Assembly (NCBI GenBank): GCA_041639695.1
Contig: JBEQBQ010000005.1
Span: 1-63,413 of the forward strand
Length of the DNA stretch: 63,413 nt
Origin: Candidatus Nanohaloarchaea archaeon
Lineage (GTDB): Archaea > Nanohalarchaeota > Nanosalinia > Nanosalinales > Nanosalinaceae
Direction: 5' to 3'
In this document: piece after piece, positions 36,997 to 50,144 of the stretch
Layout: each line of letters starts with the position of its first letter
Position numbering within the stretch: position 1 is the stretch's first letter
The notes under the pieces: model-generated
Databases searched by the model: none
What the model saw: the letters and a program-made list of their open reading frames with translations, nothing else
Told to the model about the DNA's origin: nothing
Program-made: the position numbers and the translations under genes

Positions 36997-37788
36997 CTAA
37001 GACTTGTCGTATTGTGTCTCTTCTGATCCTCCTTCAATACATTCCACGGTCAATATCTCACCGGATTGTTCCGAGTGCCCTAGTATGTGATGTTCGAAAT
37101 TCGGGATATCATAACTGGAACTGACCTGTGTAAGCACATCGTAAAACTCGTCGGGATTGTCATTTACGTGGTTGTATATGGTAGAAATTGTCTCTTCGTC
37201 TGATATTACCTGAACGGATGGCCGTGTAAGAAAATTCTCGAACATGGGTTTCCCGAAGGGGTTAGTCTCAGTTTCGTATGGCATGTTTAAGCCGAATAAT
37301 GCGTAATGGGCTTTTCCTCGGGATTTAGATTCATCGAGAGCGTCTTTGAGCTTTGCACGAGGTCCAAGAAATCCTTCCAGCCATTCATCAACAACAGGTA
37401 AAGCTGGTTCTTCAAGAGTGAGTTTGGATAGTTTGCCTCTGGCAAGTAGTTCTCCGAGAAGAGCTGTTTCGTCTCCGGGGGTATAATTATCTATTCTGTC
37501 AGGATCAACGATCTCAGTTATATCGTTATTTGCGTTCTCTATGTAGGGCGAATTAAACAGGTGCATCCTGTTTCCGTCGGCACGGTTTTGGGAGAGGTTG
37601 TCGGTAAAGCGCCTGAAACCTAGCCCTTTATGCGCCATCCTTGGTCCGGGGTCCTGGTCATAGGCATTATACCAGTCGTCGTTCAGCTTCGAATGTTTTC
37701 CGACACCATGAATGTAAATTTCCATTCCAAAATCGGGGTCTTCAGCGAAAGTTTCTGATTCAAGGTCGAGATTTTCGAGATCGGTCAT
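36997..37788 (-). CDS. Orphan hypothetical protein
   Basis: 263-aa acidic ORF inserted between eS31 and kae1. Confidence 0.7.
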   Translation of the reverse strand: MTDLENLDLESETFAEDPDFGMEIYIHGVGKHSKLNDDWYNAYDQDPGPRMAHKGLGFRRFTDNLSQNRADGNRMHLFNSPYIENANNDITEIVDPDRIDNYTPGDETALLGELLARGKLSKLTLEEPALPVVDEWLEGFLGPRAKLKDALDESKSRGKAHYALFGLNMPYETETNPFGKPMFENFLTRPSVQVISDEETISTIYNHVNDNPDEFYDVLTQVSSSYDIPNFEHHILGHSEQSGEILTVECIEGGSEETQYDKS

Positions 37789-38711: not shown

Positions 38712-39290
38712 TTACTCTGCCTCGGCTTCCTCAGCCTCTTCCTCGGCTTTTTCCTCTTCGTACTGCTCGATCCATTCGTCTTTACCGAGTCCTGGCTGTC
38801 TCATCGTCAGGTTGATCTTGTTTGTGTCCTGCTTCTCCATAGAGACTGCGATGATTCTCGCTGTAACCGTATCGTTAACCTGTAGGTTGTGCTGCTCTTC
38901 CTCGGAGACGAGCATCGAGTTCTCTTCGTCCATGTTGACGTACTCGTCCATCACTTGGCTGACGTGGCATAGTCCGTCGAAAGGTCCGATTCTGATGAAA
39001 GCACCGAACTCTGTTATGTCGACGACTTCGCCGTTGATTACTTCGTGTAGTTCCGGTTCGAAGACTATTGCGGTGTACTCTACTTCATAGTGGACCCCTG
39101 CGTCCTCTGGTTTGATATCGCCACCTTCAATATTCTTTACTTCCTCGATTCCGATTACTACACCGATTTCTTCGTAGATGTTGCCCTCTACCTCGGACTC
39201 GAGTCCTGCTTTGACGCTTTCGTCGACGTCCTCACCGAAGTGTTGTGGAGGAACTCTTACCGAGTCCTCAACTGTCAGCCTTTTGTACAT
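38712..39290 (-). CDS. rpoE1: RNA polymerase subunit Rpo7 (E')
   Basis: VRVPP, FGAFIRIGPFDGLCHVSQ and TMRQPGLGK motifs. Confidence 0.97.
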   Translation of the reverse strand: MYKRLTVEDSVRVPPQHFGEDVDESVKAGLESEVEGNIYEEIGVVIGIEEVKNIEGGDIKPEDAGVHYEVEYTAIVFEPELHEVINGEVVDITEFGAFIRIGPFDGLCHVSQVMDEYVNMDEENSMLVSEEEQHNLQVNDTVTARIIAVSMEKQDTNKINLTMRQPGLGKDEWIEQYEEEKAEEEAEEAEAE

Positions 39291-39366: not shown

Positions 39367-39750
39367 TCACAGGTTCTGTGAACGCCTGTTCACAACCTCG
39401 AGATGGTTGCTCTGCCGGATAATGATGACGGGATTGCCCTTCTCGAGGATCCTCTGTTTCAGTTCCCTGTCGTTTGTGGCGATGACATACTCGTCCGAGA
39501 GCTCCACTAGCAGGTCATCTACGGTTCCTTCTCCCTCGGTCTCCAAAATTTCAATGGACTGCTCCTCCAGGAACTTTTCCACGAGCTGTCCGTACTTGCC
39601 TTTCTCGATGCTCTTCGCCTCCTGCACCGCATCGTCGATAGTGTAGAGCTCGTGGAAAGGGTAGAGTCTCTCGATCTCGTCGAACAGAGAGAACGAGAGC
39701 TGGAACGGCGCCACGAGAAAGTTCGTGTCGAGTATGATTTTGGGGTCCAT
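39367..39750 (-). CDS. PIN domain protein (Fcf1/Utp24-like)
   Basis: ILDTNFL, VDD and ATNDRELK motifs; conserved position upstream of rpoE1. Confidence 0.9.
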   Translation of the reverse strand: MDPKIILDTNFLVAPFQLSFSLFDEIERLYPFHELYTIDDAVQEAKSIEKGKYGQLVEKFLEEQSIEILETEGEGTVDDLLVELSDEYVIATNDRELKQRILEKGNPVIIIRQSNHLEVVNRRSQNL

Positions 39751-39753
39751 TTT

Positions 39754-40845
39754 TTACGTTCTCCATTCTTTCGAGGTGCTGTTGATGGTTTTGTTTCCTT
39801 CTTCCGTTATGACTACTGTGTTCTCGACTTTTACTCCGAAATCTTCTCTCAGGTAAATTCCTGGTTCAATCGTTAACACCATGCCTGGCTTTAATTCTTG
39901 TTCGTTTCCTCTTACTACTGAAGGTCTTTCGTGTGTTGATCGGCCAAGGCCATGCCCTGTCGAAGTAATGTAGTTGTCGCCGTAACCTTTTTCTTCTATA
40001 AAACTTCTGGCGGCATCCCCAACGGATCCTGCTGTATTTCCTGGCTTAGCTTTATCAAGCGCTTTTTCGTAACCCTTATTAACTGTTTTAAATAAATCTT
40101 TGAACTTTTTGGAAGGTTCTCCGCTAAAGACCAAGGTTCTGGCGCAATCGCTGCAATAATTTTCGTATGTTGTACCTATATCGAGCACTACAGGCTCACC
40201 TTCTTCTATAACTTTGTCTCCTGGCTTATGAAATACTTCGGAGCCGTTCTCTCCAGCCGCTACTATAGGTCTGAACGCGGGCTCTTCACCTCCTTTCTCT
40301 CGAAACTTTGATAATATGAGATCTGCGACTTCCTTCTCGGTCATTCCAATCACGTCTTCAGATCTGAGATCCTCTATAACAAGGTCGGTTATCTCCGCCG
40401 CCTTTTCAAGTACTTCAATTTCTTCGGGCAACTTTTCCTGTTTAAGCTCCTGTAGAAGGTTTTCACCGCTTTCTGTGCATCTATCTAGTTTTTCCTCGAT
40501 CTTTCTGCCATGTGCATGGTACATGAAGTCGTCTAGAAGCACTTTTCCTTCGGTCTGACCAAAGTATGATTTTATAGTATCGTATGCTTTTTTAGGGCTC
40601 TGCCAGACCTCTATACTGTCTATGTATGAGTGGTTCTCCAGCTGTTCCTCCATTAGTTTGGGGGCCACGAACATTGGTTCCTTCGCTGGTGAGAGCAACA
40701 GGAAGACTTCGAAAGCCTTCTTCTCGTACTCAAAGCCAGATAGGTATCCCATGTCGGGACCTACGGAAATCACCATTCCCGCAGCTTCTTGCTGGTTTAT
40801 TTTCTTTTTGAGTTTCTTCTGTCTCTTCAGGACAGTCTTTTTCAT
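39754..40845 (-). CDS. M24 family Xaa-Pro peptidase
   Basis: LDIG, SDCART, GHGLG..THE, IEPG and VEN metal ligands. Start at ATG 40845 is preferred. Confidence 0.92.
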   Translation of the reverse strand: MKKTVLKRQKKLKKKINQQEAAGMVISVGPDMGYLSGFEYEKKAFEVFLLLSPAKEPMFVAPKLMEEQLENHSYIDSIEVWQSPKKAYDTIKSYFGQTEGKVLLDDFMYHAHGRKIEEKLDRCTESGENLLQELKQEKLPEEIEVLEKAAEITDLVIEDLRSEDVIGMTEKEVADLILSKFREKGGEEPAFRPIVAAGENGSEVFHKPGDKVIEEGEPVVLDIGTTYENYCSDCARTLVFSGEPSKKFKDLFKTVNKGYEKALDKAKPGNTAGSVGDAARSFIEEKGYGDNYITSTGHGLGRSTHERPSVVRGNEQELKPGMVLTIEPGIYLREDFGVKVENTVVITEEGNKTINSTSKEWRT

Positions 40846-40932
40846 AAACAAGGCTTTCTTTCCGAAGAGATATAATCTTTTATTAGGTAAACTTCCCGAA
40901 CTAAAAGTTGGGGTCATGCCAAAAACTTAAAT

Positions 40933-40952
40933 TTGTTATCTGGCAATAGTTA
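40933..40952 (+). promoter_or_regulatory. TTGTTA-N8-TAGTTA site
   Basis: Perfect left half (9/12 overall); follows CTTAAAT and ends 3 nt before the ATG at 40956. Confidence 0.45.
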
Positions 40953-40955
40953 ATT

Positions 40956-41660
40956 ATGAGCGATGAAAACTTCATGATCGGGTACGGCAGCCTCATCAAC
41001 CCGGAGTCGCTGATCGCGAGGTTTGAAGGTGTTGAAGCAGGCGACATCGGCGAGATATACGACGAGGCGCCGGAGTACCCGAGCGGCGATCTGCTGAGGG
41101 ACGAAGTCCTCGAGCAGTGGGACGAGATGGTCGGCGACATTCACGTAGTGCCTGTAAAACTTGAGGGCGGTTTCGAGAGGCGTTATTCACATGAAAGTGA
41201 CAGGAGCGGCGGGATGCTCGACGCCGTCTACGATGATGAAGGCGATGGCTGGATCAACGGCGTCCTGGTGACCGGTCTCGATGACAGCCAGTTCAAGGAT
41301 GTGGCGGACACCGAGACGGGCTACGACACCGTTTCTATCGCGGGGGAGAACATCGATCCGTACATAAGCGACGAGTTAATGGCGGATATGGGCGTAGAAA
41401 TCCCTGGAGAGGTCGAGATATTCGTTCCGGAAAAGGGCTCCGAGTTCGCCAACATGGAGACCGACAGGGAAAAGAACCAGGTGTACCACGACAGGATCTT
41501 GAAGGGTATCGACCTTCTCGGCGAGATGTACGGAGAAACCGTCGCCAACGAGTTCAGGGAGGACTACCTGAGAACCACGGAGGAGAAGAACCAGAACCCT
41601 CTCGAGAGAGGCGGTTACAGCGACGCGATGGTTGGACAGACGGTGCAGTACTGGTTCTAG
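40956..41660 (+). CDS. Gamma-glutamylcyclotransferase-like (GGCT/ChaC/AIG2 fold) protein
   Basis: IGYGSLIN, GFERR, INGVL and ETGY motifs. G/C-ending codons dominate. Confidence 0.7.
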   Translation: MSDENFMIGYGSLINPESLIARFEGVEAGDIGEIYDEAPEYPSGDLLRDEVLEQWDEMVGDIHVVPVKLEGGFERRYSHESDRSGGMLDAVYDDEGDGWINGVLVTGLDDSQFKDVADTETGYDTVSIAGENIDPYISDELMADMGVEIPGEVEIFVPEKGSEFANMETDREKNQVYHDRILKGIDLLGEMYGETVANEFREDYLRTTEEKNQNPLERGGYSDAMVGQTVQYWF

Positions 41661-41703
41661 CCCGGGCTGAACACTAATAAATCCGGTCGACTGAGTAATT
41701 TCT

Positions 41704-42639
41704 ATGTTCAATCTGGCCTCGCTGTGGGACGACGCGGTAAGCGACTGGGAGCTAGAAGAACCGTTCTCGAAGCAACAATACAACAAAGATTACGAGCACT
41801 ACTCTAAACTGGCAGAGCAAAAAGACGCGAAACTGTTCCTCGCACATTATACTTGGTATAAGGACGGCGAGATGCAGAAAGCCTTCACCTATGAAAATGG
41901 AAAATGGAGGAAAGTCCACAATATCGAGGTTGATGGCGTCTGGGATGCATTCAAGATTAACGAGGAGACTATGAGAATAAAGAAGGAAATGAAGCAAAGG
42001 CACGTGATGATTAATCGGCCGGACGTAGATAAACTGTGTAAAGACAAGCTTGAGACTTATGAGAAGTTCAGCGAACTTGTTCCCGAAACCAAGAAGGCTT
42101 CAGAAACGAATGTGGAAGAAATAATCGAAAGATACGGCAGAGCTGTCGTGAAACCGAGAGATGACTGGGGCGGCGAAGGCGTACAGCTAGTAGAAAATAC
42201 CTCAGAGTTCGAAGGAGAACCTGAAGAATGGCTGGTACAGGAGTTCGTTGATGCTTCGGAAGGAATCTCCCAACTCGGAGTAGAGGGAATACATGACCTC
42301 AGGGCTTTAGTCGTGAACGGCGATGTTATAACCGGTTTCCTGAGGCAGCCGGATGAAGGCTTCGTCAGTAACGTCCACCAGGGAGGAAGCATTGAAGTAG
42401 TTAAAGTTGAGGAGTTTCCTGAAGAAGCTCTGGAGAAAGTTGAAAAGGTGAAGGAAGAGATGTCGGATCTTGAACCGTATCTCATGACGGTAGATATGAT
42501 CTACGATTCGAAGACAGAGAAGTTCAGGGTGCTGGAGCTCAACTCCAAGCCGGGCATGAGCTTCTACGGTAGAGAGGATATGAAGAAAGCAAAGTCGGCG
42601 ATAGCCGAAACTTTATACGAGGCTTTCAAAAGAGGCTAA
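41704..42639 (+). CDS. ATP-grasp ligase (RimK/GshB-like)
   Basis: CKDK, VVKPRDDWGGEGV, LVQEFV, DLR, SNVHQGG and ELNSKPG motifs. Confidence 0.9.
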   Translation: MFNLASLWDDAVSDWELEEPFSKQQYNKDYEHYSKLAEQKDAKLFLAHYTWYKDGEMQKAFTYENGKWRKVHNIEVDGVWDAFKINEETMRIKKEMKQRHVMINRPDVDKLCKDKLETYEKFSELVPETKKASETNVEEIIERYGRAVVKPRDDWGGEGVQLVENTSEFEGEPEEWLVQEFVDASEGISQLGVEGIHDLRALVVNGDVITGFLRQPDEGFVSNVHQGGSIEVVKVEEFPEEALEKVEKVKEEMSDLEPYLMTVDMIYDSKTEKFRVLELNSKPGMSFYGREDMKKAKSAIAETLYEAFKRG

Positions 42640-42642
42640 ACT

Positions 42643-43560
42643 ATGGACAATATAGGCTTTCTCTTCTCGAACTACGAGATAAACGAGGAAGAAAAACCTT
42701 TCGGCGATCAGTATCTCAACGAGACATACAGCGACTTCAGCAAACTAGGTTCTGAAAGAGGTCTCAAAATAATTCTGGCCCGGTTTGAATGGTACGAAGG
42801 AGAAAAACTTGAGAAGGGCTGGATCCAAGATGAGGGGTGGAGGAAGGTCGAAAACCCAGAGATCGAAGGTGTCTTCGACAAGTTCAAGTTCGGCGAAGAT
42901 ACGCGGAAACTGACGCAGAGAATAAAGCGACAGGTCGGTATAATCAACGATCCCGAGCTTGAGGAGATTTGCAAGGACAAGCTTTTGACCTATGAGGAGT
43001 TCTCGGATGCTGTTCCGGAGACAAGAGAAGCAACTGAGGAGAATCTCTCGGAGTTCCTGCAAAGGGATGGAAAAGCGGTCCTGAAGCCTCGTTACGGCTT
43101 TGGAGGTGATGGAGTCAGTGTTGTGGAGAGTGTAGATCAACTCGAGGATGAAGATCTTGTCCAGAGATTTGTCGAGCCCGGAGAAAGCGAAGTGCTGGAT
43201 TTAGAAGGTTATCACGACTTGAGGCTTATCTTTGTGAATGAAGAGCTTGTCCTGAGCTATGTCCGTACGCCTGACGAAGGATTTGTAAGCAATATCGCTC
43301 AGGGAGGAGAGATGAGATATCTGGAGCTGAATCAGGTTCCCGAAGAGGCACTGAACGTCGCTGAGCCTGTGAGAAAGAAGTTCTCTCAATTTAAGCCCAA
43401 CCTATACTCGGTTGATTTGATGCTCGACAGCTCCGGAGAGTTTAGGGTTATAGAACTGAACTCGAAGCCGGGCATAGGATTCAGGCATCCTGAGGAGGTC
43501 AAGAAGTTCGAACTACCGGCGATGAAGTCCTTGGTCGATGCGATGGAGGATCTAGTCTGA
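42643..43560 (+). CDS. ATP-grasp ligase (RimK/GshB-like), tandem paralog
   Basis: CKDK, VLKPRYGFGGDGV, LVQRFV, DLR, SNIAQGG and ELNSKPG motifs. Confidence 0.9.
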   Translation: MDNIGFLFSNYEINEEEKPFGDQYLNETYSDFSKLGSERGLKIILARFEWYEGEKLEKGWIQDEGWRKVENPEIEGVFDKFKFGEDTRKLTQRIKRQVGIINDPELEEICKDKLLTYEEFSDAVPETREATEENLSEFLQRDGKAVLKPRYGFGGDGVSVVESVDQLEDEDLVQRFVEPGESEVLDLEGYHDLRLIFVNEELVLSYVRTPDEGFVSNIAQGGEMRYLELNQVPEEALNVAEPVRKKFSQFKPNLYSVDLMLDSSGEFRVIELNSKPGIGFRHPEEVKKFELPAMKSLVDAMEDLV

Positions 43561-44439
43561 GTTTCTCTGGCGTTCCATAGCTCTTTCATGAAGCCGCTCA
43601 ACCATCTTGAGAATAACATCTGTGCCTATAATCTCGTTCATTTCTTCGTTTATTCCGTATGAGCCGTTAACTTCCAGAACATACGCTTCGTCCTCGGTCT
43701 CGATTACATCGCATCCGCATATATCGAAGCCGGTGGCCCGTGCTGCTCTGATTGCGGCGGTTTTCATTTCCTCTGTTAGTTCGGCTTTTTTGCGTTCTCC
43801 GCCGCCGGAAATGTTTGAACGCCATTCATCGCCGCTACTTGAACGGCTGTAAGCCATAACTTCATCGCCTATAACGATTACACGGTTGTCGGTCCCTGCA
43901 TGTTCCTTGAAGTCCTGGAGGCAGATCTCCTGTTCGAACGACTTCATCGTGTCCATAACAGGTTTCAGTTCGTTTTCCGAGCTTGCCCTCATAACCCCTT
44001 CGCCTCCACCACCCTTGATAGTCTTCATGATGATCGGGTATCCAAGGGTTTTTGCGGCCTCTACCGCCACGTCCGGAGAAAGGGTATAGACACTGTCAGG
44101 TACGTTTATACCGGTCTCGGCTAGTACTTTCATCGAGTAGAACTTGTTTGACTCGTAGCTGTAGGTGTCGTTGGCGGCCTGTGTCACAACGCCTTCCTCG
44201 TTCAGTATTTCAACGAGGTGTTCGGAGAAAAGCATGTCTCTGTCGGAGGTCCTTATGTATATGGCGTCGAATTCTGTCAGGTCGACGTCTTTGTACAGAA
44301 CTTTCTGGTCCTCGTCGCTGTGTACTAGCTTCAGTCCGTCTACAGGTGCGGCTAGCACGGAGTCAAAAATGTCTTCTGCCCGCTCCATAAGCAGCTGGTG
44401 CTGGGTAGAAACTTCTCCATAGATAATTCCAAGCTTCAT
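43552..44439 (-). CDS. RimK-family alpha-L-glutamate ligase
   Basis: SNK, GYPIIMK..GGGGEGV, D.RV, WRSNISGGG, GCDVI and LEVN motifs. Confidence 0.9.
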   Translation of the reverse strand: MKLGIIYGEVSTQHQLLMERAEDIFDSVLAAPVDGLKLVHSDEDQKVLYKDVDLTEFDAIYIRTSDRDMLFSEHLVEILNEEGVVTQAANDTYSYESNKFYSMKVLAETGINVPDSVYTLSPDVAVEAAKTLGYPIIMKTIKGGGGEGVMRASSENELKPVMDTMKSFEQEICLQDFKEHAGTDNRVIVIGDEVMAYSRSSSGDEWRSNISGGGERKKAELTEEMKTAAIRAARATGFDICGCDVIETEDEAYVLEVNGSYGINEEMNEIIGTDVILKMVERLHERAMERQRNSD

Positions 44440-45245
44440 TTTTCACCCTCCTTCAGCAACTTCGCGATCGTTTCGTGGACGTTTTTTCCGCCAGCGTCCG
44501 AGAAAAGTTCTAGATTGGGATTAGGATTAATATCGAATAATTGCTCTCCCCGCAGCTTTACCTCTGCTACGGAGGTGCCTAGAGAGTTCATACAGTCCCG
44601 TATCTTTTTCTCCTTCGAATCTGAAATGTTCGAGTACTTGGGGCTCTCATCTTTGAACTTCCATGAGTCCGAGTTATCCTTAAGCGATATTATTTCGTCT
44701 CCAATAACTAGACAACGGTATTTCTCTCCTTTATCGTAGTTCTGGAATAGCAGCACATCGTCCTCGTATTCAGTTCCTTCGGCAAAGCTTTGAATGTCTT
44801 CGACAGTATCCAGTTTTCTTCTTTCCGTCTCTTCAAGGTTTTCCAGCTTTCTTCCTACTAAAGGAGGTTCAACCTGTTTGTGGACGTTTCTAGCTGCTTT
44901 CTCGGTCGGTACTACAACGGTGTTAGGTGAATTGATGCCTCGTTTTTTCAATACGTAGTAGAGATAATTTTTCTTTGAAAGAGCGAAGAAGCAAGTTGAG
45001 GAAATACTGGTCTTGACTCCTTTTTCTTCAGCCATTTCAAGAAGTACTCTTCCGAAGACGGCGTTCCTTGGATTTATCCTTACGAAAACAGCGTCATATT
45101 TGTCAATACTGTTTCCGTTCACTCTGACGTCTTTCTCTCCCTTGATTACTTCGGGTGCGATTCGATCCAGTTTCTTGTGGTCTACCTCGTCGAAGAAAGG
45201 TTCGAATTCCTCTATTGGTTCTTCAGCTATTGTCAGAAGTTTGAT
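44436..45245 (-). CDS. Degenerate RimK-like ATP-grasp protein (probable ATC start)
   Basis: The frame stays open 41 codons upstream of the track's GTG. IKLLTI...FFDEV...YDAVFVR aligns with neighbour MKLGII...IFDSV...FDAIYIR. Gly loop is lost and DINPNP replaces EVN. Confidence 0.75.
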   Translation of the reverse strand: MKLLTIAEEPIEEFEPFFDEVDHKKLDRIAPEVIKGEKDVRVNGNSIDKYDAVFVRINPRNAVFGRVLLEMAEEKGVKTSISSTCFFALSKKNYLYYVLKKRGINSPNTVVVPTEKAARNVHKQVEPPLVGRKLENLEETERRKLDTVEDIQSFAEGTEYEDDVLLFQNYDKGEKYRCLVIGDEIISLKDNSDSWKFKDESPKYSNISDSKEKKIRDCMNSLGTSVAEVKLRGEQLFDINPNPNLELFSDAGGKNVHETIAKLLKEGEK

Positions 45246-45251
45246 TGTGGA

Positions 45252-46748
45252 TCAATCCTCGTTGGGAGACCATAGATGTGTCACATCTCCGTTTTTCCGC
45301 CATTTCTCCATGTAGCTTGAAACGGATTCGGGCATGCTCTCCTGCATAAGTCTTCCCTGTCTCATAATCTTTGTAAGCCTCGACTCGAGGGTCTTCGAAA
45401 GCTCATCGTAATAGTTTCTATCGGAGTAGATCAGGTCATTCTTGATTCTCCAGAAAGCTGTTGTGCCCTGAGGTGCTAAGACGTAGTAACCTGAATCTTC
45501 AGCGATCGCTTTACGTAGTTTTTCTCTTTCAACATAGTATACTCCGGCATCTTTCACAGGATCTACAACCAGAATCTCTCTGTTTTCAACTCCGACACAA
45601 AGCACGAACTGCTCGCCATCTGACTCAGGGAAGATCTTACTTTTCTCGATAGTCATAGATACTAGGCCGCCATCGTTGAACCATGTTTTGAGTTCGGCAG
45701 CAAGATCCGTTATTTTGTCTTTCTCAACAAATGCTGTCTTCACTTCTGACTCTGTGGCTTGAGAAACCGCTTCCTCGATCTCTTCAGGGCTTGAACTTTC
45801 TATCTTCTGGCTTATTTGTTTCTGGGTAGCCCTGTAGCCGAAGATTTCGAGAGCCATAACTATAGAGGCCGGACCCGAGGTCTCCGTGCCTTCAGCAACA
45901 AAGTACTCCTTAATATCTTCAAGAGTTTCAAGGTCGCTCTGCGTTCTCTTGAACGCCATCTTCGAATCCATCATTCTCTGGTTAGGTACAACTATTGTTC
46001 TTCCTTCCATAGTGTCAAGGCTTGTGCTAAACAGTGAGACTTTCTGGACTTCTGCTATTTCTCCATCAATCTCTGCTTCCTCCCCAGGCCTAACATTTCT
46101 AGTGTTTTTCAAGTAGATGCCTGCAGCATAGTTTTCAAACAGGTCCTTGAATCCGTAGAAGACAAGTCCTGCGATTAGGAATGCTGCGGCCCAAGAAGAC
46201 GCGGTTACAAGCTCATCAACGAAAGTGCTTCCTATGTTAAGCTCTGTCAGAGCAAGCTGCATCAACAATAGGTATAGGAATCCTTTGAGGAGGCCTCCAA
46301 GAAGATCGATCGAGCCGCCGGAAAGCCCTAGCTCGTTCATGTAGCTTTCAGTTCCAAGGTTTCTCAACATTTCTCTACTTAGTCTAGTCGCCAAGTTAAT
46401 GGCTATAAAGCCCAGTACCGCCACTAGCACAGCTGATAGCACTCTCGGCACGTAGCCGGAGAGGCTGGAAAGCACCTGTGTGGATAAACCAGTATTAATA
46501 TAGAGAAGTGCAAGTAGAAGGACTCCTGCATCAAGAATGTATGAGAGGTATTCAAGTACTTCGTAACGGTTCTCAACATCTTTCTTTGTCAGGTCCTGGC
46601 TCCGGTTAGCCCAGTACTTTCTTCCTAGAATGTTTACGAGTTTCACGCCGAGATGCCCCATCACAAGTATCAGGAGTGCGACACCGGTACGTACCAACGG
46701 GTTTTGCCCCATTCCAAAGTCTAGGAGAGAAGCTAGTAACTGGGCCAT
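45252..46748 (-). CDS. MscS-family mechanosensitive channel fused to an inactive C39 peptidase-like domain
   Basis: TM helices, FKDLFENYAAGIYL and VVPNQ (MscS), then SGPASIVMALEIFG...QFVLCVG...VVDP (C39-like, lacking catalytic Cys and His). Confidence 0.8.
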   Translation of the reverse strand: MAQLLASLLDFGMGQNPLVRTGVALLILVMGHLGVKLVNILGRKYWANRSQDLTKKDVENRYEVLEYLSYILDAGVLLLALLYINTGLSTQVLSSLSGYVPRVLSAVLVAVLGFIAINLATRLSREMLRNLGTESYMNELGLSGGSIDLLGGLLKGFLYLLLMQLALTELNIGSTFVDELVTASSWAAAFLIAGLVFYGFKDLFENYAAGIYLKNTRNVRPGEEAEIDGEIAEVQKVSLFSTSLDTMEGRTIVVPNQRMMDSKMAFKRTQSDLETLEDIKEYFVAEGTETSGPASIVMALEIFGYRATQKQISQKIESSSPEEIEEAVSQATESEVKTAFVEKDKITDLAAELKTWFNDGGLVSMTIEKSKIFPESDGEQFVLCVGVENREILVVDPVKDAGVYYVEREKLRKAIAEDSGYYVLAPQGTTAFWRIKNDLIYSDRNYYDELSKTLESRLTKIMRQGRLMQESMPESVSSYMEKWRKNGDVTHLWSPNED

Positions 46749-46789: not shown

Positions 46790-47980
46790 TCATTCTTTCG
46801 ACACGATCTCTCCATGGCCGATAAGACGCCATCTAGAGCCTATCTGGCGTGAAATCGCGACCCTGTCACCTTCTTCTGCGCATACAGGCACTTTCAAGTC
46901 GACTTTAATCCTGTCGCCGGCTTGAGTTACGTAACCTGCTGACTTGCCTGTGCCAACGTTAAGCATCAAAGGTTCTTTCTCCTTTATGTTCTCGATCTCT
47001 TGCTCGTTCTCAGAACCGACCAAACGGTCCATCAGCTCTACGTCCACAGTTATATTGTAAGTGACTTCTGGAAGTTCGCCTTCACGTCCCATAACGTTTC
47101 CTGAAAGCCCGTCCGATTTACCAAGTGAAGGATCTAATTTTGTTTCGACTGCTAGAAGCCCTCCAGGCTTGCCTTTCTCCACAGGGTTTCCTCCATGGAA
47201 AATGTTGGATACTTCTGTCTTTACAGGCTCCCATTCGTCTTCGCCGACTTTTACTCCAGGTCGGATCTCCACCTTTTCGCCTTTCTCAAGCTCGCCTTTT
47301 GTCAGCGAACCGCCTACTACTCCGCCTTTTATGTCGGATATATCACTGCCAGGCTTGTTGATGTCAAAAGACCTTGCGAGAAGCATTTTTGGATCTGCTC
47401 CGTTATCTCTTTCCGGAGTGGGAATCTCTTCATCTACTGCTTCAAGTAATGCGTCAATATTAACCTGTTGCTGTGCAGAAACAGGGATGATAGGTGCGTC
47501 CTCTGCTACAGAGCCTTCCAAGAACTCTTGAATTTGCTCGTAGTTCTCTCGAGCTTCCTCTTTTGATACTTTATCGATCTTGTTCTGAACAACCACGATG
47601 TTTTCTACTCCCGCAATATCTAGAGCGGCAAGGTGCTCACGTGTCTGTGGCTGAGGACATTCCTCATCGGCAGCAACTAGAAGGATTGCACCGTCCATTA
47701 TTGCTGCGCCGGATAGTACGTTTGCCATCAGTGTCTCGTGTCCTGGTGCATCGACAAGAGAAACTGTTCTCTCTACATCTCCGTCTCCGTCGACGTTCAG
47801 CTCTCCGTCATCATTATAGTATGTGATGTCGGCGTATCCGAGCTTGATAGTGATACCTCTCTTCAGCTCTTCTGAGTGTTCGTCAGTCCATTTGCCTGAG
47901 AGAGCGTTTGTCAGGGTTGTCTTTCCGTGGTCTACGTGGCCTACAAGCCCGATGTTTACCTCGGGTATTTTGTCAGTCAT
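46790..47980 (-). CDS. eif2g: Translation initiation factor aIF2 gamma
   Basis: [27 protein letters not shown] and RWRLIG motifs. Confidence 0.97.
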
Positions 47981-48243
47981 AGTATAATTTCATCCTCCGG
48001 AACCTTGATAGTCTTTTCTTCGTTTGAAAGTCTGTACTTCTTGGAGGGGGAGAACGTAAAACTCTCCTCCACCTTGTACAGATTGTCTTCGTGAGTTACT
48101 CTGTCGCCTTCCTTGAACTGGAAGCCTCGTAATATTTCTATGTAGGACTCCACTTCCTGTGCGTAAGGTAGGGAGCCTACCTGTCTTTCCAGTTTGTTTG
48201 TCTTTCTATGGAGGCTTCGGTACCAGGATTCGTTCCTCGTCAT
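47977..48243 (-). CDS. Small hypothetical protein (SH3/KOW-like C-terminus)
   Basis: 88-aa ORF coupled to both neighbours by ATGA overlaps; contains FKEGDRV. Confidence 0.7.
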
Positions 48244-48614
48244 TCCTCTTCTTCGTCTGAGAGTAGTTCTTCGATCGTTTCAGATCCTTCTTCAACAACT
48301 GTGGTGTTGAGTTGTTCGATTGCGTCCGATACCGTGTTTCCTCTTACGGACTTTCTTCTTCTCTCTCCTTTCTCTTTTGAGTCGATTCCTGCGCCTTCTT
48401 CTAGGAGGATTCTACGTCTTCCAGTTCCTTCGATTGATTCTCTCATCGGGAAGCCTTGCTTGTCGCTCCCGCCAGTGATCTCCAGTTTGTAACCTTCTAG
48501 GCCGATAATTCCGCCGTCAAAGCTTTCTCCTATCTTTTTTCCTGCAAGTTTTGAGGATTCTTCGGTTTCGATCTGATGTGTATTTCCGTCGTTGTCTCCG
48601 ACTGTAACCTTCAT
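48240..48614 (-). CDS. rps6e: 30S ribosomal protein eS6
   Basis: GKKIG, ITGGSDKQGFPMR and GERRRKSVRGN motifs. Confidence 0.97.
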   Translation of the reverse strand: MKVTVGDNDGNTHQIETEESSKLAGKKIGESFDGGIIGLEGYKLEITGGSDKQGFPMRESIEGTGRRRILLEEGAGIDSKEKGERRRKSVRGNTVSDAIEQLNTTVVEEGSETIEELLSDEEEE

Positions 48615-48719
48615 TATTTGTTCACCTTTGCTCAGTTCTGTTAGTTCCGAGCATCAAAGACCGGACTTCTAAGCTTTAAATATGAACACTTTTTATTCAG
48701 GCCCTTGGAAATACCGGTT

Positions 48720-50144
48720 ATGAGGAGTTCAGTGATTGATGATGTTATTGGAAGCTTCCTGAAGATATATTCGCTGGTGCTTCTCGTACCGTTTTTCGTC
48801 GGTATTTACTTCATGGATTCTGTTCTTACCGTGGCCGGTTTTGGACTTGCTTCAGTGGTTTCTCTAGGTCTTGGTTTAGGGCTTTCCGGTTCTGAAGAAA
48901 AACCGACTGTTTCAGAGGCGATGTTCGCAACTGTGCTAGGATGGGTACTCGCTATTATTCTCGGGGCTATACCTTTCATGAACCACGTTCCTATGATTGA
49001 CGCGATCTTTGAATCGAGCGCCGGGCTGACAACAACAGGTATTTCGCTGGTTCTCGAGCCTTCAAATCTTCCACAGTCTCTACTGTTTTGGAGAGGTTTC
49101 TCCCAGTGGATCGGCGGCCTAGGAATACTAACGTTCTTCATAGCAGTTGTCAGGGAATCCGGTGGTGTAACAAGGAGACTTTACTCCGCTGAGTCACACA
49201 AGACGGATTCGGGTTCAATAAGGCCTTCACTCAAAAAATCAATAGTTGATCTGTGGAAAGTTTACGGAGTAATGACGGTCTTGTTCGGTTTGATTTATCT
49301 CGGGCTTGGTATGTCAATCTTCGACTCCATCATGCATGTGTTCTCTGGTATATCGACTGGAGGATTCTCCACACAGGCAGCAAGTATCGGAGGCTTCTCT
49401 CTAGGCGTGCAGCTTGCTACAATACCGTTGATGCTTCTTGGCGGTGTCAACTTCGTGCTGCTGTTTAAACTTTTGAAGGCTGATATTAGGCCTTTGCTTG
49501 GCAGCTCCGAGTTCAAGTTGTATATGATGATCTTCGCAGCGGTAGCCTTAATGACCTCTACAGAACTATTTGTTGCATCAGGAAGTGCTCTAAGCTCTCT
49601 TCTACAGGGCAGCTTCAAGTCGGCAGCAGTGCTTTCCTCAACCGGTTACTCCACATTCTCCATCACCTCTCTTTCAGTAGCGTTACAAGTTGTTTTCTTA
49701 GCAGTCATGTTTGTTGGTGGTTCTCTAGGATCTACATCTGGAGGTTGGAAGGTCTTCAGGTTGAAAACTATGTATGAATCGTTAAAGGTTCGGCTGAGAG
49801 GCTACAAACTTCCGGAATCGGCAATCAACAAGGTAAAGATCGATGGGGAGATTGTCAACAACTCGACGGTTAGAACGATCTCAGTACTCTTCTTTACGTG
49901 GATCTCGATGATCTTCATATCCTCGCTTCTGGTTTTAGTGGCTGACGGTACAAGTTTCATGGCAGCGCTATCAGGTTCAATTTCAGCCGCGGGCAACATG
50001 GGCCCGGTCTACATGTCAGGAAATGAAATGCTGGCGCTTTCCGGGTTCACAAAACTTGTCTGGAGTTTCTTGATGCTTGCCGGCCGTCTGGAGATGCTTC
50101 CTTTACTCGCTATATTCAATACTGAGATGCTTAGCGGCGAGTGA
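48720..50144 (+). CDS. trkH: Trk potassium uptake membrane protein
   Basis: TTTG, QWIGGLG, STGGFS, GGSLGSTSGG.K, NMGP and MLAGRLE motifs. Confidence 0.95.
   Translation: MRSSVIDDVIGSFLKIYSLVLLVPFFVGIYFMDSVLTVAGFGLASVVSLGLGLGLSGSEEKPTVSEAMFATVLGWVLAIILGAIPFMNHVPMIDAIFESSAGLTTTGISLVLEPSNLPQSLLFWRGFSQWIGGLGILTFFIAVVRESGGVTRRLYSAESHKTDSGSIRPSLKKSIVDLWKVYGVMTVLFGLIYLGLGMSIFDSIMHVFSGISTGGFSTQAASIGGFSLGVQLATIPLMLLGGVNFVLLFKLLKADIRPLLGSSEFKLYMMIFAAVALMTSTELFVASGSALSSLLQGSFKSAAVLSSTGYSTFSITSLSVALQVVFLAVMFVGGSLGSTSGGWKVFRLKTMYESLKVRLRGYKLPESAINKVKIDGEIVNNSTVRTISVLFFTWISMIFISSLLVLVADGTSFMAALSGSISAAGNMGPVYMSGNEMLALSGFTKLVWSFLMLAGRLEMLPLLAIFNTEMLSGE

Follow-up and report, generated by a model that had tools for sequence, protein, structure and literature searches.

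A three-gene channel and RimK-type ligase core with a variable gene slot in Nanohaloarchaeota

According to excerpts of one report (PMC11957051), RimK can make free poly-alpha-glutamate, an activity countered by a peptidase encoded alongside it; in Pseudomonas, the rloABC genes, whose products are a peptidase that cleaves polyE, a membrane protein whose papain-superfamily domain is inactive, and a RimK-like ligase, are required under hypo-osmotic stress. Glutamate is also exported in bacteria by the channels MscS and MscCG, as stated in excerpts of two other reports (PMC6110860, PMC12541555). The locus described here brings an MscS-like channel protein and a RimK-type ligase together in an archaeon. 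It occupies positions 39,754 to 46,748 of a stretch of 63,413 nucleotides (hereafter the window: assembly GCA_041639695.1, contig JBEQBQ010000005.1, 1-63,413, forward strand) from Candidatus Nanohaloarchaea archaeon, whose lineage in GTDB is Archaea; Nanohalarchaeota; Nanosalinia; Nanosalinales; Nanosalinaceae, and whose genome assembly measures 0.97 Mb and is 89% complete.

An old core and a variable slot

The locus has two layers: an old core of three genes found throughout the phylum, and a variable slot between the last of them and a PIN-domain gene. The core is an ancient, self-contained module that encodes the channel protein, a dead RimK paralogue (dRimK) and an intact RimK-type ligase (RimK). 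It was followed through 20 fetched regions of up to 20 kb and through 60 loci from species-representative genomes, 56 of which were analysed, nearly all of them Nanohaloarchaeota-named. Gene families in the window were assigned by Pfam and NCBIfam profile scans of its open reading frames (ORFs), and the gene calls in relatives are crude ORFs. The roles of catalytic residues and the TIGRFAM context are general background.

The earlier note on this DNA, made from the letters of the window, had named conservation of the neighbourhood as a check. The outcome is clear for the core: the genes for aIF2-gamma, the channel protein, dRimK and RimK are contiguous and co-directional in 20/20 fetched regions, and the complete contiguous triad is present in 52 of the 56 public loci. 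Of the remaining four, three are truncated at contig ends, and L103 has a channel gene without the other two. Such contiguity is clustering beyond chance. The aIF2-gamma gene stands directly upstream, on the same strand, in 43/56 loci. As for the channel protein, its full-length form was recovered in 37 of 41 relatives, and its C-terminal domain was found in 64 of the 70 phylum genomes sampled and in 27 of the 28 of high quality.

The exceptions are instructive. The channel domain and RimK are absent together in four genomes, G028 (93% complete), G033 (88%), G025 and G059, and the first two display an empty site, where aIF2-gamma is followed directly by the PIN gene. Conversely, two loci from metagenome-assembled genomes labelled "archaeon" (L105 and L107) have the channel, dRimK and RimK genes with a second RimK in unrelated surroundings and no aIF2-gamma nearby, while L101, labelled as other archaea, keeps the triad with aIF2-gamma on the opposite strand. 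The genes are tightly packed, with a 4-nucleotide overlap between dRimK and RimK, and the core is probably co-translated.

The slot is of a different nature. It holds amide ligases or peptidases/amidases in 41/56 loci, and its families include YheCD-like ATP-grasp ligases (27/56 loci, confined to part of the phylum), represented in the window by the paralogues AG1 and AG2; metallopeptidases of the MATCAP/DUF1704 type (16/56), with the HExxH motif in all eight copies checked; a P-loop protein of ~340 amino acids, PL344 (13/56); GCS2/YbdK-type carboxylate-amine ligases (12/56), which follow RimK and whose scores are far under the equivalog cut-offs; AstE/AspA-like amidohydrolases (9/56); and extra RimK copies. 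The slot ATP-grasp ligase of one relative gives a TTL match in Pfam (6.8e-6). The P-loop family (L020:12999-14033, L023:6474-7514 and 11 more loci) has an invariant DAGKTT motif and weak MobB/ParA matches.

In the window, the slot holds AG1, AG2, an M24 metallopeptidase and a protein with the fold of gamma-glutamyl cyclotransferase (GGCT). The earlier note had placed these genes and the core in a single 7-kb island within the aIF2-gamma-PIN-rpoE string. The seven genes that it named are real and in place, as attested by the ORF list, the profile scans and, for the GGCT-like gene, the fold; the insertion into the string is borne out by the empty sites. The single island is replaced by the two layers, since neither M24 nor the GGCT-like gene accompanies the module in any of 20 neighbouring loci, and homologues of the GGCT-like gene occur elsewhere in unrelated contexts. 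The suspicion that the two halves have different histories was well founded: the core is phylum-wide, the ATP-grasp paralogues occur in part of the phylum, and M24 and the GGCT-like gene accompany the module in the window only.

The proteins of the core and of the slot

The profile matches in Table 1 assign the channel protein to the MscS family on the strength of a conserved transmembrane (TM) helix and the beta-domain, and a tension-gated heptameric pore is predicted. Residues are invariant throughout TM3 and the beta-domain in an alignment of 20 orthologues. The last 232 residues (amino acids 267-498) were modelled with AlphaFold2 (AF2) from 20 orthologues, with a mean predicted local distance difference test score (pLDDT) of 75, and contain a papain-like domain. 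In Foldseek searches, its best match is Alr0975 (E 2.8e-7), and PeiR (a pseudomurein isopeptidase), PCAT1 and ComA are also retrieved, with E values of 1e-5 to 1e-7. VIA-align gives Z scores of 14-17 to PeiR, ComA (15.2), PCAT1 (15.0) and Alr0975, and 11.9 to HlyB. Thus, although the window's protein scores below the cut-off for C39_2 (17.7 against 24 bits), the papain-like fold is confirmed by the structural alignments. Pfam recognizes C39_2 in 17 of the 20 orthologues, C39 in 13 and Phytochelatin (PF05023) in eight, the last with a best E of 1.2e-5 and with no match in the window's own copy.

The fold of the "MscS-C39-like" protein of the earlier note is therefore upheld; its activity is another matter. 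Judged from its residues, the papain-like domain is catalytically dead in the window's genome: Ser291 replaces the Cys and Gln380 the His of the dyad, and a Glu stands at what we take to be the position of the oxyanion Gln. Beyond the domain, the C-terminal extension has the invariant residues W433, R434, Y441, K452, R463, W483 and W493, and pLDDT is <50 for model residues 177-232. In the orthologues, the 42-residue stretch after the domain has a net positive charge (mean +3.2), while that of the domain itself is -20.

The combination is rare. A profile of the C-terminal domain finds only 77 proteins among 1.84 billion representative proteins, most of them 480-545 amino acids long with the domain at the C-terminus, and the channel-papain architecture forms a single archaeal cluster in the ESM Atlas, whose 73 members are labelled "hypothetical proteins". 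Within the window's own genus, identity to its channel protein is 47% in G001 and 88% in G002, which hints at an exchange of modules between lineages or at a broad genus.

What makes the dyad informative is the company that it keeps. Cys and His are both intact in 30/56 channel orthologues; 25 of these have GCS2 or the P-loop protein in the slot, none has MATCAP, and five have neither. When the dyad is lost (26/56), the picture is reversed, with MATCAP in 16 loci, GCS2 or the P-loop protein in none, and neither partner in ten, among them the window and G002. All 12 GCS2 loci have an intact dyad, and the P-loop family is always beside one (13/13). Cys and His are found in all four outgroup channel proteins, so that the intact dyad is the ancestral condition, and the dyad changes at least four times on a tree of 53 proteins. 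In three independent contrasts, GCS2 or the P-loop protein goes with the dyad in 3/3 and MATCAP behaves in the opposite way in 2-3/3 (sign test, p 0.25-0.5). The pattern may be read as follows: the system would require a hydrolase, and once a stand-alone one is present, the fused domain could lose catalysis and retain some other role. MATCAP lies 9-24 nucleotides upstream of PIN in relatives, and M24 lies 3 nucleotides upstream of it in the window. MATCAP is absent from the window's genome when searched with the Pfam model and from three genomes of the genus when searched with a relative's MATCAP; GCS2 was not found in the window's genome either.

The second protein of the core, called "degenerate RimK" in the earlier note, has indeed lost its catalytic motifs, but decay is the wrong word. 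When RimK and dRimK orthologues are aligned, all 20 dRimK sequences lack the Gly-rich loop with its ATP-binding Lys, the R-S-N motif and the acidic Mg ligands, and the only invariant columns are V67, K92, Y94, V98, P128, W195, Y204 and G223. The protein is nevertheless conserved over its whole length, with 28-86% identity among these orthologues. The loss of the catalytic residues together with full-length conservation marks dRimK as a pseudoenzyme under selection, conserved across the order. The ESM Atlas assigns it to RimK-like clusters (0.97). From its sequence, dRimK keeps a RimK-like fold and fails as an active ATP-grasp ligase. The possibility that it is an unusually basic polyanion binder was considered and dropped: although the window copy carries almost no net charge, the mean of the orthologues is -21.

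Where does dRimK begin? In 15 of 20 loci inspected, the start falls within the channel gene, overlapping its last 23-29 nucleotides. The ORF called in the window, of 228 amino acids and with its GTG at 45122, is probably too short and a mis-call. Upstream of this codon lie 41 further conserved codons, up to an ATC at 45245-45243, and then two open codons up to the channel TGA (45254-45252). The first 43 codons past the channel stop contain no ATG, GTG or TTG in the window or in G002; the frame is open and conserved, and is the same as that of the channel gene. The codon aligned with the dRimK Met of relatives is ATC in the window and ATT in G002. The product may arise from a near-cognate start, or by read-through as a channel-dRimK fusion; either is possible. 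A conserved channel tail of some families, "KLDEFT", was considered as a ligase target and set aside, since hand translation of the upstream sequences suggests that it is probably just the overlap with the dRimK start.

As for RimK itself, the sequence identifies it as an intact RimK-family ligase with predicted alpha-L-glutamate ligase activity. A set of 20 orthologues shares K139, G143/145/146/148, R207-S208-N209, D244, E256 and N258 without exception; these would be the Lys with its Gly-rich loop, the R-S-N motif and the Mg ligands (D/E/N), respectively. Among solved structures, the nearest matches of RimK are the S6-glutamate ligases of E. coli and Pseudomonas (E 2e-25). The earlier note had mentioned, as evidence that would count against it, the grouping of each gene with an unrelated known function such as CofF or MptN. 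RimK falls below the equivalog cut-offs of MptN (126.9 against 350 bits), LysX (107.6 against 275.6), the S6 ligase (104.6 against 331) and CofF (74.5 against 300), so the core is not absorbed by any of these functions. It also matches the glutathione-synthetase ATP-grasp domain, with 50.9 bits, well under the glutathione synthase cut-offs. PF08443 has three matches in the 0.97-Mb genome, all within the locus.

Among the slot genes, AG1 and AG2 are separated by 3 nucleotides and share 42% identity, and AG2 converges on RimK with a 9-nucleotide overlap. AG1 has an orthologue in G002, of the same genus, with 79% identity, while AG2 has no counterpart there. Their sequences point to AG2 as an old, divergent paralogue and not as a recent duplicate of AG1.

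The 234-residue protein has no match by sequence in Pfam, NCBIfam or PDB, and its relatives among 5.8 billion proteins are two, one of them its own copy. The family is present in 5/41 related genomes, the window's own included. An AF2 model from six sequences (pLDDT 73) retrieves, at E <= 0.01 in Foldseek, exclusively GGCT-fold proteins (AIG2-like, ChaC2, yeast ChaC and human GGCT; E 2.7e-4 to 2.6e-3, TM-score 0.35-0.62). YGSLI (9-14) and Glu120 are invariant in the six sequences, in keeping with the N-terminal YGSL motif and the catalytic Glu of GGCT-fold enzymes. On this model the protein is GGCT-like at the level of the fold (gamma-glutamyl cyclotransferase/ChaC/AIG2-like). Elsewhere its homologues adjoin unrelated genes, for release-factor-like, GTPase, arginase and trehalase proteins, and none is beside ligases. 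In L034 and L035 (genomes G020 and G019), the homologue sits amid genes for SSB-like OB-fold, VLRF1/eRF1-like release-factor and Drg-type GTPase proteins, a separate conserved neighbourhood.

M24 probably starts at 40845, which gives 363 amino acids, the length of the database copy. It misses the PepQ equivalog cut-off (196.4 against 630). When aligned to 4rgz, its D, D, H, E, E motifs, presumably the five metal ligands, are conserved, and by this token the enzyme looks active. It has no close orthologue in the relatives, where the best match is 44% over part of the length; within the genus, G001 has 35% and G002 a distant 34%. Among 5.8 billion proteins, none matches it better than 54%, and the named homologues that come nearest are haloarchaeal aminopeptidases P, with 34-38% identity. 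The genome has four M24 paralogues. The G+C content steps from 0.43 in M24 to 0.53 in the GGCT-like gene within 1 kb (window 40000-42000), consistent with separate origins.

Table 1. Genes and domains of the locus and its boundaries in the window, with profile scores
Feature	Position	Strand	Evidence
rpoE	38712-39290	-	NF006333 230.4 bits
PIN_9-domain gene, downstream boundary of the insertion, followed by rpoE	39367-39750	-	PF18477 53.3 bits
M24B prolidase/aminopeptidase-P-like metallopeptidase	39754-40845 (ORF extendable to 40917)	-	PF00557 206.6 bits; Creatinase_N 37.5 bits
GGCT-fold protein, 234 aa	40956-41660	+	no Pfam/NCBIfam match; model and Foldseek
AG1, YheCD/ATP-grasp_3-type ligase	41704-42639	+	PF02655 53.5 bits
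AG2, YheCD/ATP-grasp_3-type ligase	42643-43560	+	PF02655 47.0 bits; PF14398 42.9 bits
RimK, intact RimK-family ATP-grasp ligase	43552-44439	-	PF08443 124.5 bits (cut-off 21); TIGR00768 147.4 bits (cut-off 143.4)
dRimK (pseudo-RimK)	44436-45245 (called ORF 44436-45122, GTG start)	-	TIGR00768 36.7 bits, E 3e-9; PF08443 16.2 bits, below cut-off
MscS/C39-like channel protein	45252-46748	-	PF00924 33.7 bits (cut-off 20.2; aa 202-263); PF05552 27.2 bits (cut-off 22; aa 91-133); both above cut-off
Channel gene, MscS-like membrane part (aa 1-265): TM helices, pore-lining TM3, beta-domain	45954-46748	-	
Channel gene, papain-like (C39/phytochelatin-synthase-like) cytoplasmic domain (aa ~271-430)	45459-45938	-	
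Channel gene, conserved C-terminal extension (aa 431-498)	45255-45458	-	
aIF2-gamma, upstream boundary of the insertion	46790-47980	-	NF003077 576.5 bits

The flanks of the locus offer some observations of their own. An ORF of 88 amino acids (47977-48243) lies between the genes for S6e and aIF2-gamma, with 4-nucleotide overlaps on both sides, and among the 20 fetched loci it is matched only in G002, of the same genus (68% identity). An acidic ORF of 263 amino acids (36997-37788), between Kae1 and S27ae, has a tblastn match in 0/20 related loci. A TrkH-type potassium transporter gene (window 48705-50144) is divergent and upstream of S6e in 17/20 fetched loci, which makes this K+ uptake gene a stable neighbour of the module.

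A putative glutamyl-peptide system and its rivals

What does the module do? The account that we favour, with moderate confidence, is a system for the synthesis and breakdown of glutamyl peptides or polyglutamate that is coupled to the channel and whose substrate is putative. RimK, aided or regulated by dRimK, would act in the cytoplasm, at the channel, and join glutamate into short alpha-glutamyl peptides or polyglutamate. This product would originally have been hydrolysed by the papain-like domain; in the window's lineage the domain would only bind it, because Cys, His and presumably the oxyanion Gln are replaced. With the domain dead, hydrolysis would pass to a stand-alone peptidase, MATCAP in relatives and possibly M24 and the GGCT-like enzyme in the window. 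Accessory ligases would extend or cap the peptide, and the MscS-type pore would couple the pool of free glutamate or glutamyl peptides to membrane tension and ionic state, or release the product.

Several findings speak for this account: the linkage of the core, the joint loss of the channel domain and RimK, the triad kept in outgroup contexts, the invariant catalytic residues of RimK against their loss in dRimK, the S6-glutamate ligases as nearest solved relatives of RimK, a papain-like fold whose matches act on peptides or on glutathione, the pairing of dyad state with slot genes, the place of M24 next to PIN, and the precedents of RimK, RloABC, MscS and MscCG in bacteria. The slot families MATCAP, AstE/AspA, GCS2 and extra RimK fit a role in glutamyl-peptide synthesis and turnover, which is the part of the earlier note's proposal that stands; the polyglutamate tags and osmolytes that it also invoked are not shown directly.

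Other points weigh on the opposite side. The product, the substrate and the interactions of the module are putative, and only in the window's genome do M24 and the GGCT-like gene accompany it. The swap between dyad and accessory genes rests on three to four independent transitions, too few for significance. The papain-like domain is strongly acidic, which is awkward for the binding of a polyanion. M24B enzymes are typically Xaa-Pro specific, a poor fit to polyglutamate, and no need for organic osmolytes is known in salt-in halophiles. Finally, ten dyad-lost loci have no MATCAP in the slot, including that of the sister genome G002 (99% complete), which also has no M24 there, so that a replacement peptidase is either not obligatory or located elsewhere. 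M24 may act as the stand-in hydrolase in the window's genome, a proposal weakened by G002 having neither enzyme.

Could the substrate be a protein? RimK with RimB on bacterial S6, and TTL/TTLL with MATCAP/CCP on tubulin, are the models for protein tagging. By analogy, RimK would add C-terminal Glu to a protein and peptidases would trim it, the best candidate target being S6e, encoded three genes upstream on the same strand. The solved chains nearest RimK are, after all, S6-glutamate ligases, and MATCAP and the M14-clan AstE-like slot enzymes of relatives belong to classes that trim acidic protein tails, as on tubulin; GGCT, GCS2 and M24 dipeptidase-type enzymes, however, act on small molecules. 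The tail of S6e (48240-48614) is equally double-edged. It is the sole ORF ending in EEEE among the 969 crude ORFs of at least 100 amino acids in the genome, but acidic tails are common in the proteome. S6e ends in Glu in 29/41 relatives, with runs of one to six, and in G028, which has no module, it ends in ...NSKST; however, the tail does not end in Glu in 12/41 module-bearing genomes. Its position counts for little, because the adjacency of S6e and aIF2-gamma is present at empty sites too and is therefore ancestral and independent of the module, and outgroup loci hold the triad far from S6e. On balance, protein tagging is unlikely.

A special form of this idea, which strikes us as quite improbable, is that of a tension-gated writer and eraser, in which RimK, docked to the channel via dRimK, would lengthen an oligo-Glu tail of S6e (eS6) and peptidases would shorten it. 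If S6e were marked in this way, translation would be tuned to the osmotic state, and the archaeal module would have converged on the bacterial polyglutamylation of bS6, with an unrelated protein as its target.

Another option is that only the three-gene core is functional, and that M24, the GGCT-like gene and perhaps AG2 landed by chance in a recombination-prone gap. The absence of M24 and the GGCT-like gene from the neighbouring loci would be explained, as would the step in G+C content across the two genes, the four M24 paralogues in the genome, and the scatter of the GGCT-like gene, found in just 5/41 genomes and beside genes with no bearing on ligases. G002, of the same genus, manages without M24, the GGCT-like gene and AG2. 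Chance does not sit well with slot contents that are non-random, with ligases or peptidases in 41/56 loci, nor with M24 occupying exactly the MATCAP position; moreover, the gamma-glutamyl compounds on which enzymes of the GGCT fold act are in keeping with the other contents of the slot. We regard this reading as unlikely.

Far less probable is a gamma-glutamyl thiol or peptide cycle of the glutathione type, in which the ligase pair would build gamma-Glu-X(-Glu), and the phytochelatin-synthase-like (PCS-like) domain, the GGCT-like enzyme and a dipeptidase would degrade it. Alr0975, which cleaves glutathione, is the best fold match of the channel domain, but the C39 and PeiR matches are equally strong. 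The Phytochelatin profile is found in 8/20 orthologues, yet the PCS-like domain of the window is dead. GCS2, of the YbdK/glutamate-cysteine-ligase family, comes after RimK in the 12 intact-dyad loci, although with its low scores and its absence from the window's genome. The similarity of RimK to the glutathione-synthetase ATP-grasp domain stays well under the glutathione synthase cut-offs. The GGCT/ChaC-fold and dipeptidase-type enzymes of the window also speak for such a cycle.

An action of dRimK on translation initiation via aIF2-gamma, which would explain its position after this gene (directly upstream in 43/56 loci) by analogy with CDC123, a eukaryotic ATP-grasp protein that binds eIF2-gamma according to an excerpt of its description (PMC4431377), is scarcely credible: L105 and L107 have the triad but no aIF2-gamma nearby, L101 has the two on different strands, dRimK resembles RimK rather than the CDC123/R2K families, and the channel gene intervenes between aIF2-gamma and dRimK.

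If the favoured account of a channel-coupled glutamyl-peptide system is true, this would be the first RimK-type glutamate ligase wired to a mechanosensitive channel. The genomes of Nanohaloarchaeota are of ~1 Mb, yet the module is kept in 64/70 of those sampled, and for this reason it is probably important to life at saturating salt or to a symbiotic lifestyle. Intact- and lost-dyad domains, each with its own set of accessory genes, amount to a natural experiment that could reveal RimK-like products outside bacteria. A literature search, judged mostly from titles and abstract openings, found no published description of the module, and no paper was found on RimK together with Nanohaloarchaeota, or on two or more of MATCAP, DUF1704 and ATP-grasp.

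Comparison with known systems

Several systems already described resemble parts of the module. With the glutamate exporters MscCG and MscS, the window's channel shares the MscS-family pore and beta-domain. However, its C-terminal cytoplasmic part is replaced by the papain-like domain and the conserved extension.

The fusion of a C39-fold domain, on the cytoplasmic side, to a membrane transport protein is known from PCAT1, ComA and HlyB. Both the active C39 forms (PCAT1 and ComA, Z 14-15) and the dead, binding-only form (the C39-like domain of HlyB, Z 11.9) match the window's domain. The carrier is an ATP-binding cassette (ABC) exporter in those proteins, whereas in the window it is an MscS-family channel whose partners are ATP-grasp ligases, and no gene for a double-glycine leader peptide was seen.

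The tubulin tail cycle, in which TTL/TTLL ligases are opposed by MATCAP and M14 carboxypeptidases, employs the same classes of enzymes that occupy the slot of relatives, namely ATP-grasp ligases, MATCAP with HExxH and AstE/AspA-like enzymes. This relation is one of enzyme classes, with no orthology implied. The window's genome, unlike that cycle, has no MATCAP, and a tubulin-like target is not known.

RimK-RimB(-RimA) of Pseudomonas and E. coli includes the nearest solved relatives of the window's RimK, and both systems pair a RimK-family ATP-grasp ligase with an opposing peptidase function. The window differs in its fused membrane channel and in a dead paralogue that is obligatory, and its RimK reaches less than a third of the S6-ligase equivalog cut-off. 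RimB, the retropepsin-like polyE peptidase (PF05618), had no match in the window's 89%-complete genome, while the control matched in 2/14 genomes. The bacterial target bS6 has no known archaeal homologue.

Along with RimK-RimB, the nearest analogue is RloABC of Pseudomonas aeruginosa, which, in the published excerpts (PMC11957051), follows a similar three-part logic: a RimK-like ATP-grasp enzyme, a membrane protein whose papain-superfamily domain is inactive, and a peptidase that cleaves polyE. There, the membrane part consists of seven TM helices and a periplasmic inactive transglutaminase domain, and the peptidase is a secreted retropepsin; here, an MscS-like channel carries a cytoplasmic C39/PCS-like domain. 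Homology is apparent only for the ATP-grasp enzyme, and the resemblance is one of analogy. The requirement for RloABC under hypo-osmotic stress would nonetheless fit a mechanosensitive-channel partner in the window, and the archaeal module may in turn shed light on rloABC and on the MATCAP/ATP-grasp cassettes of bacteria.

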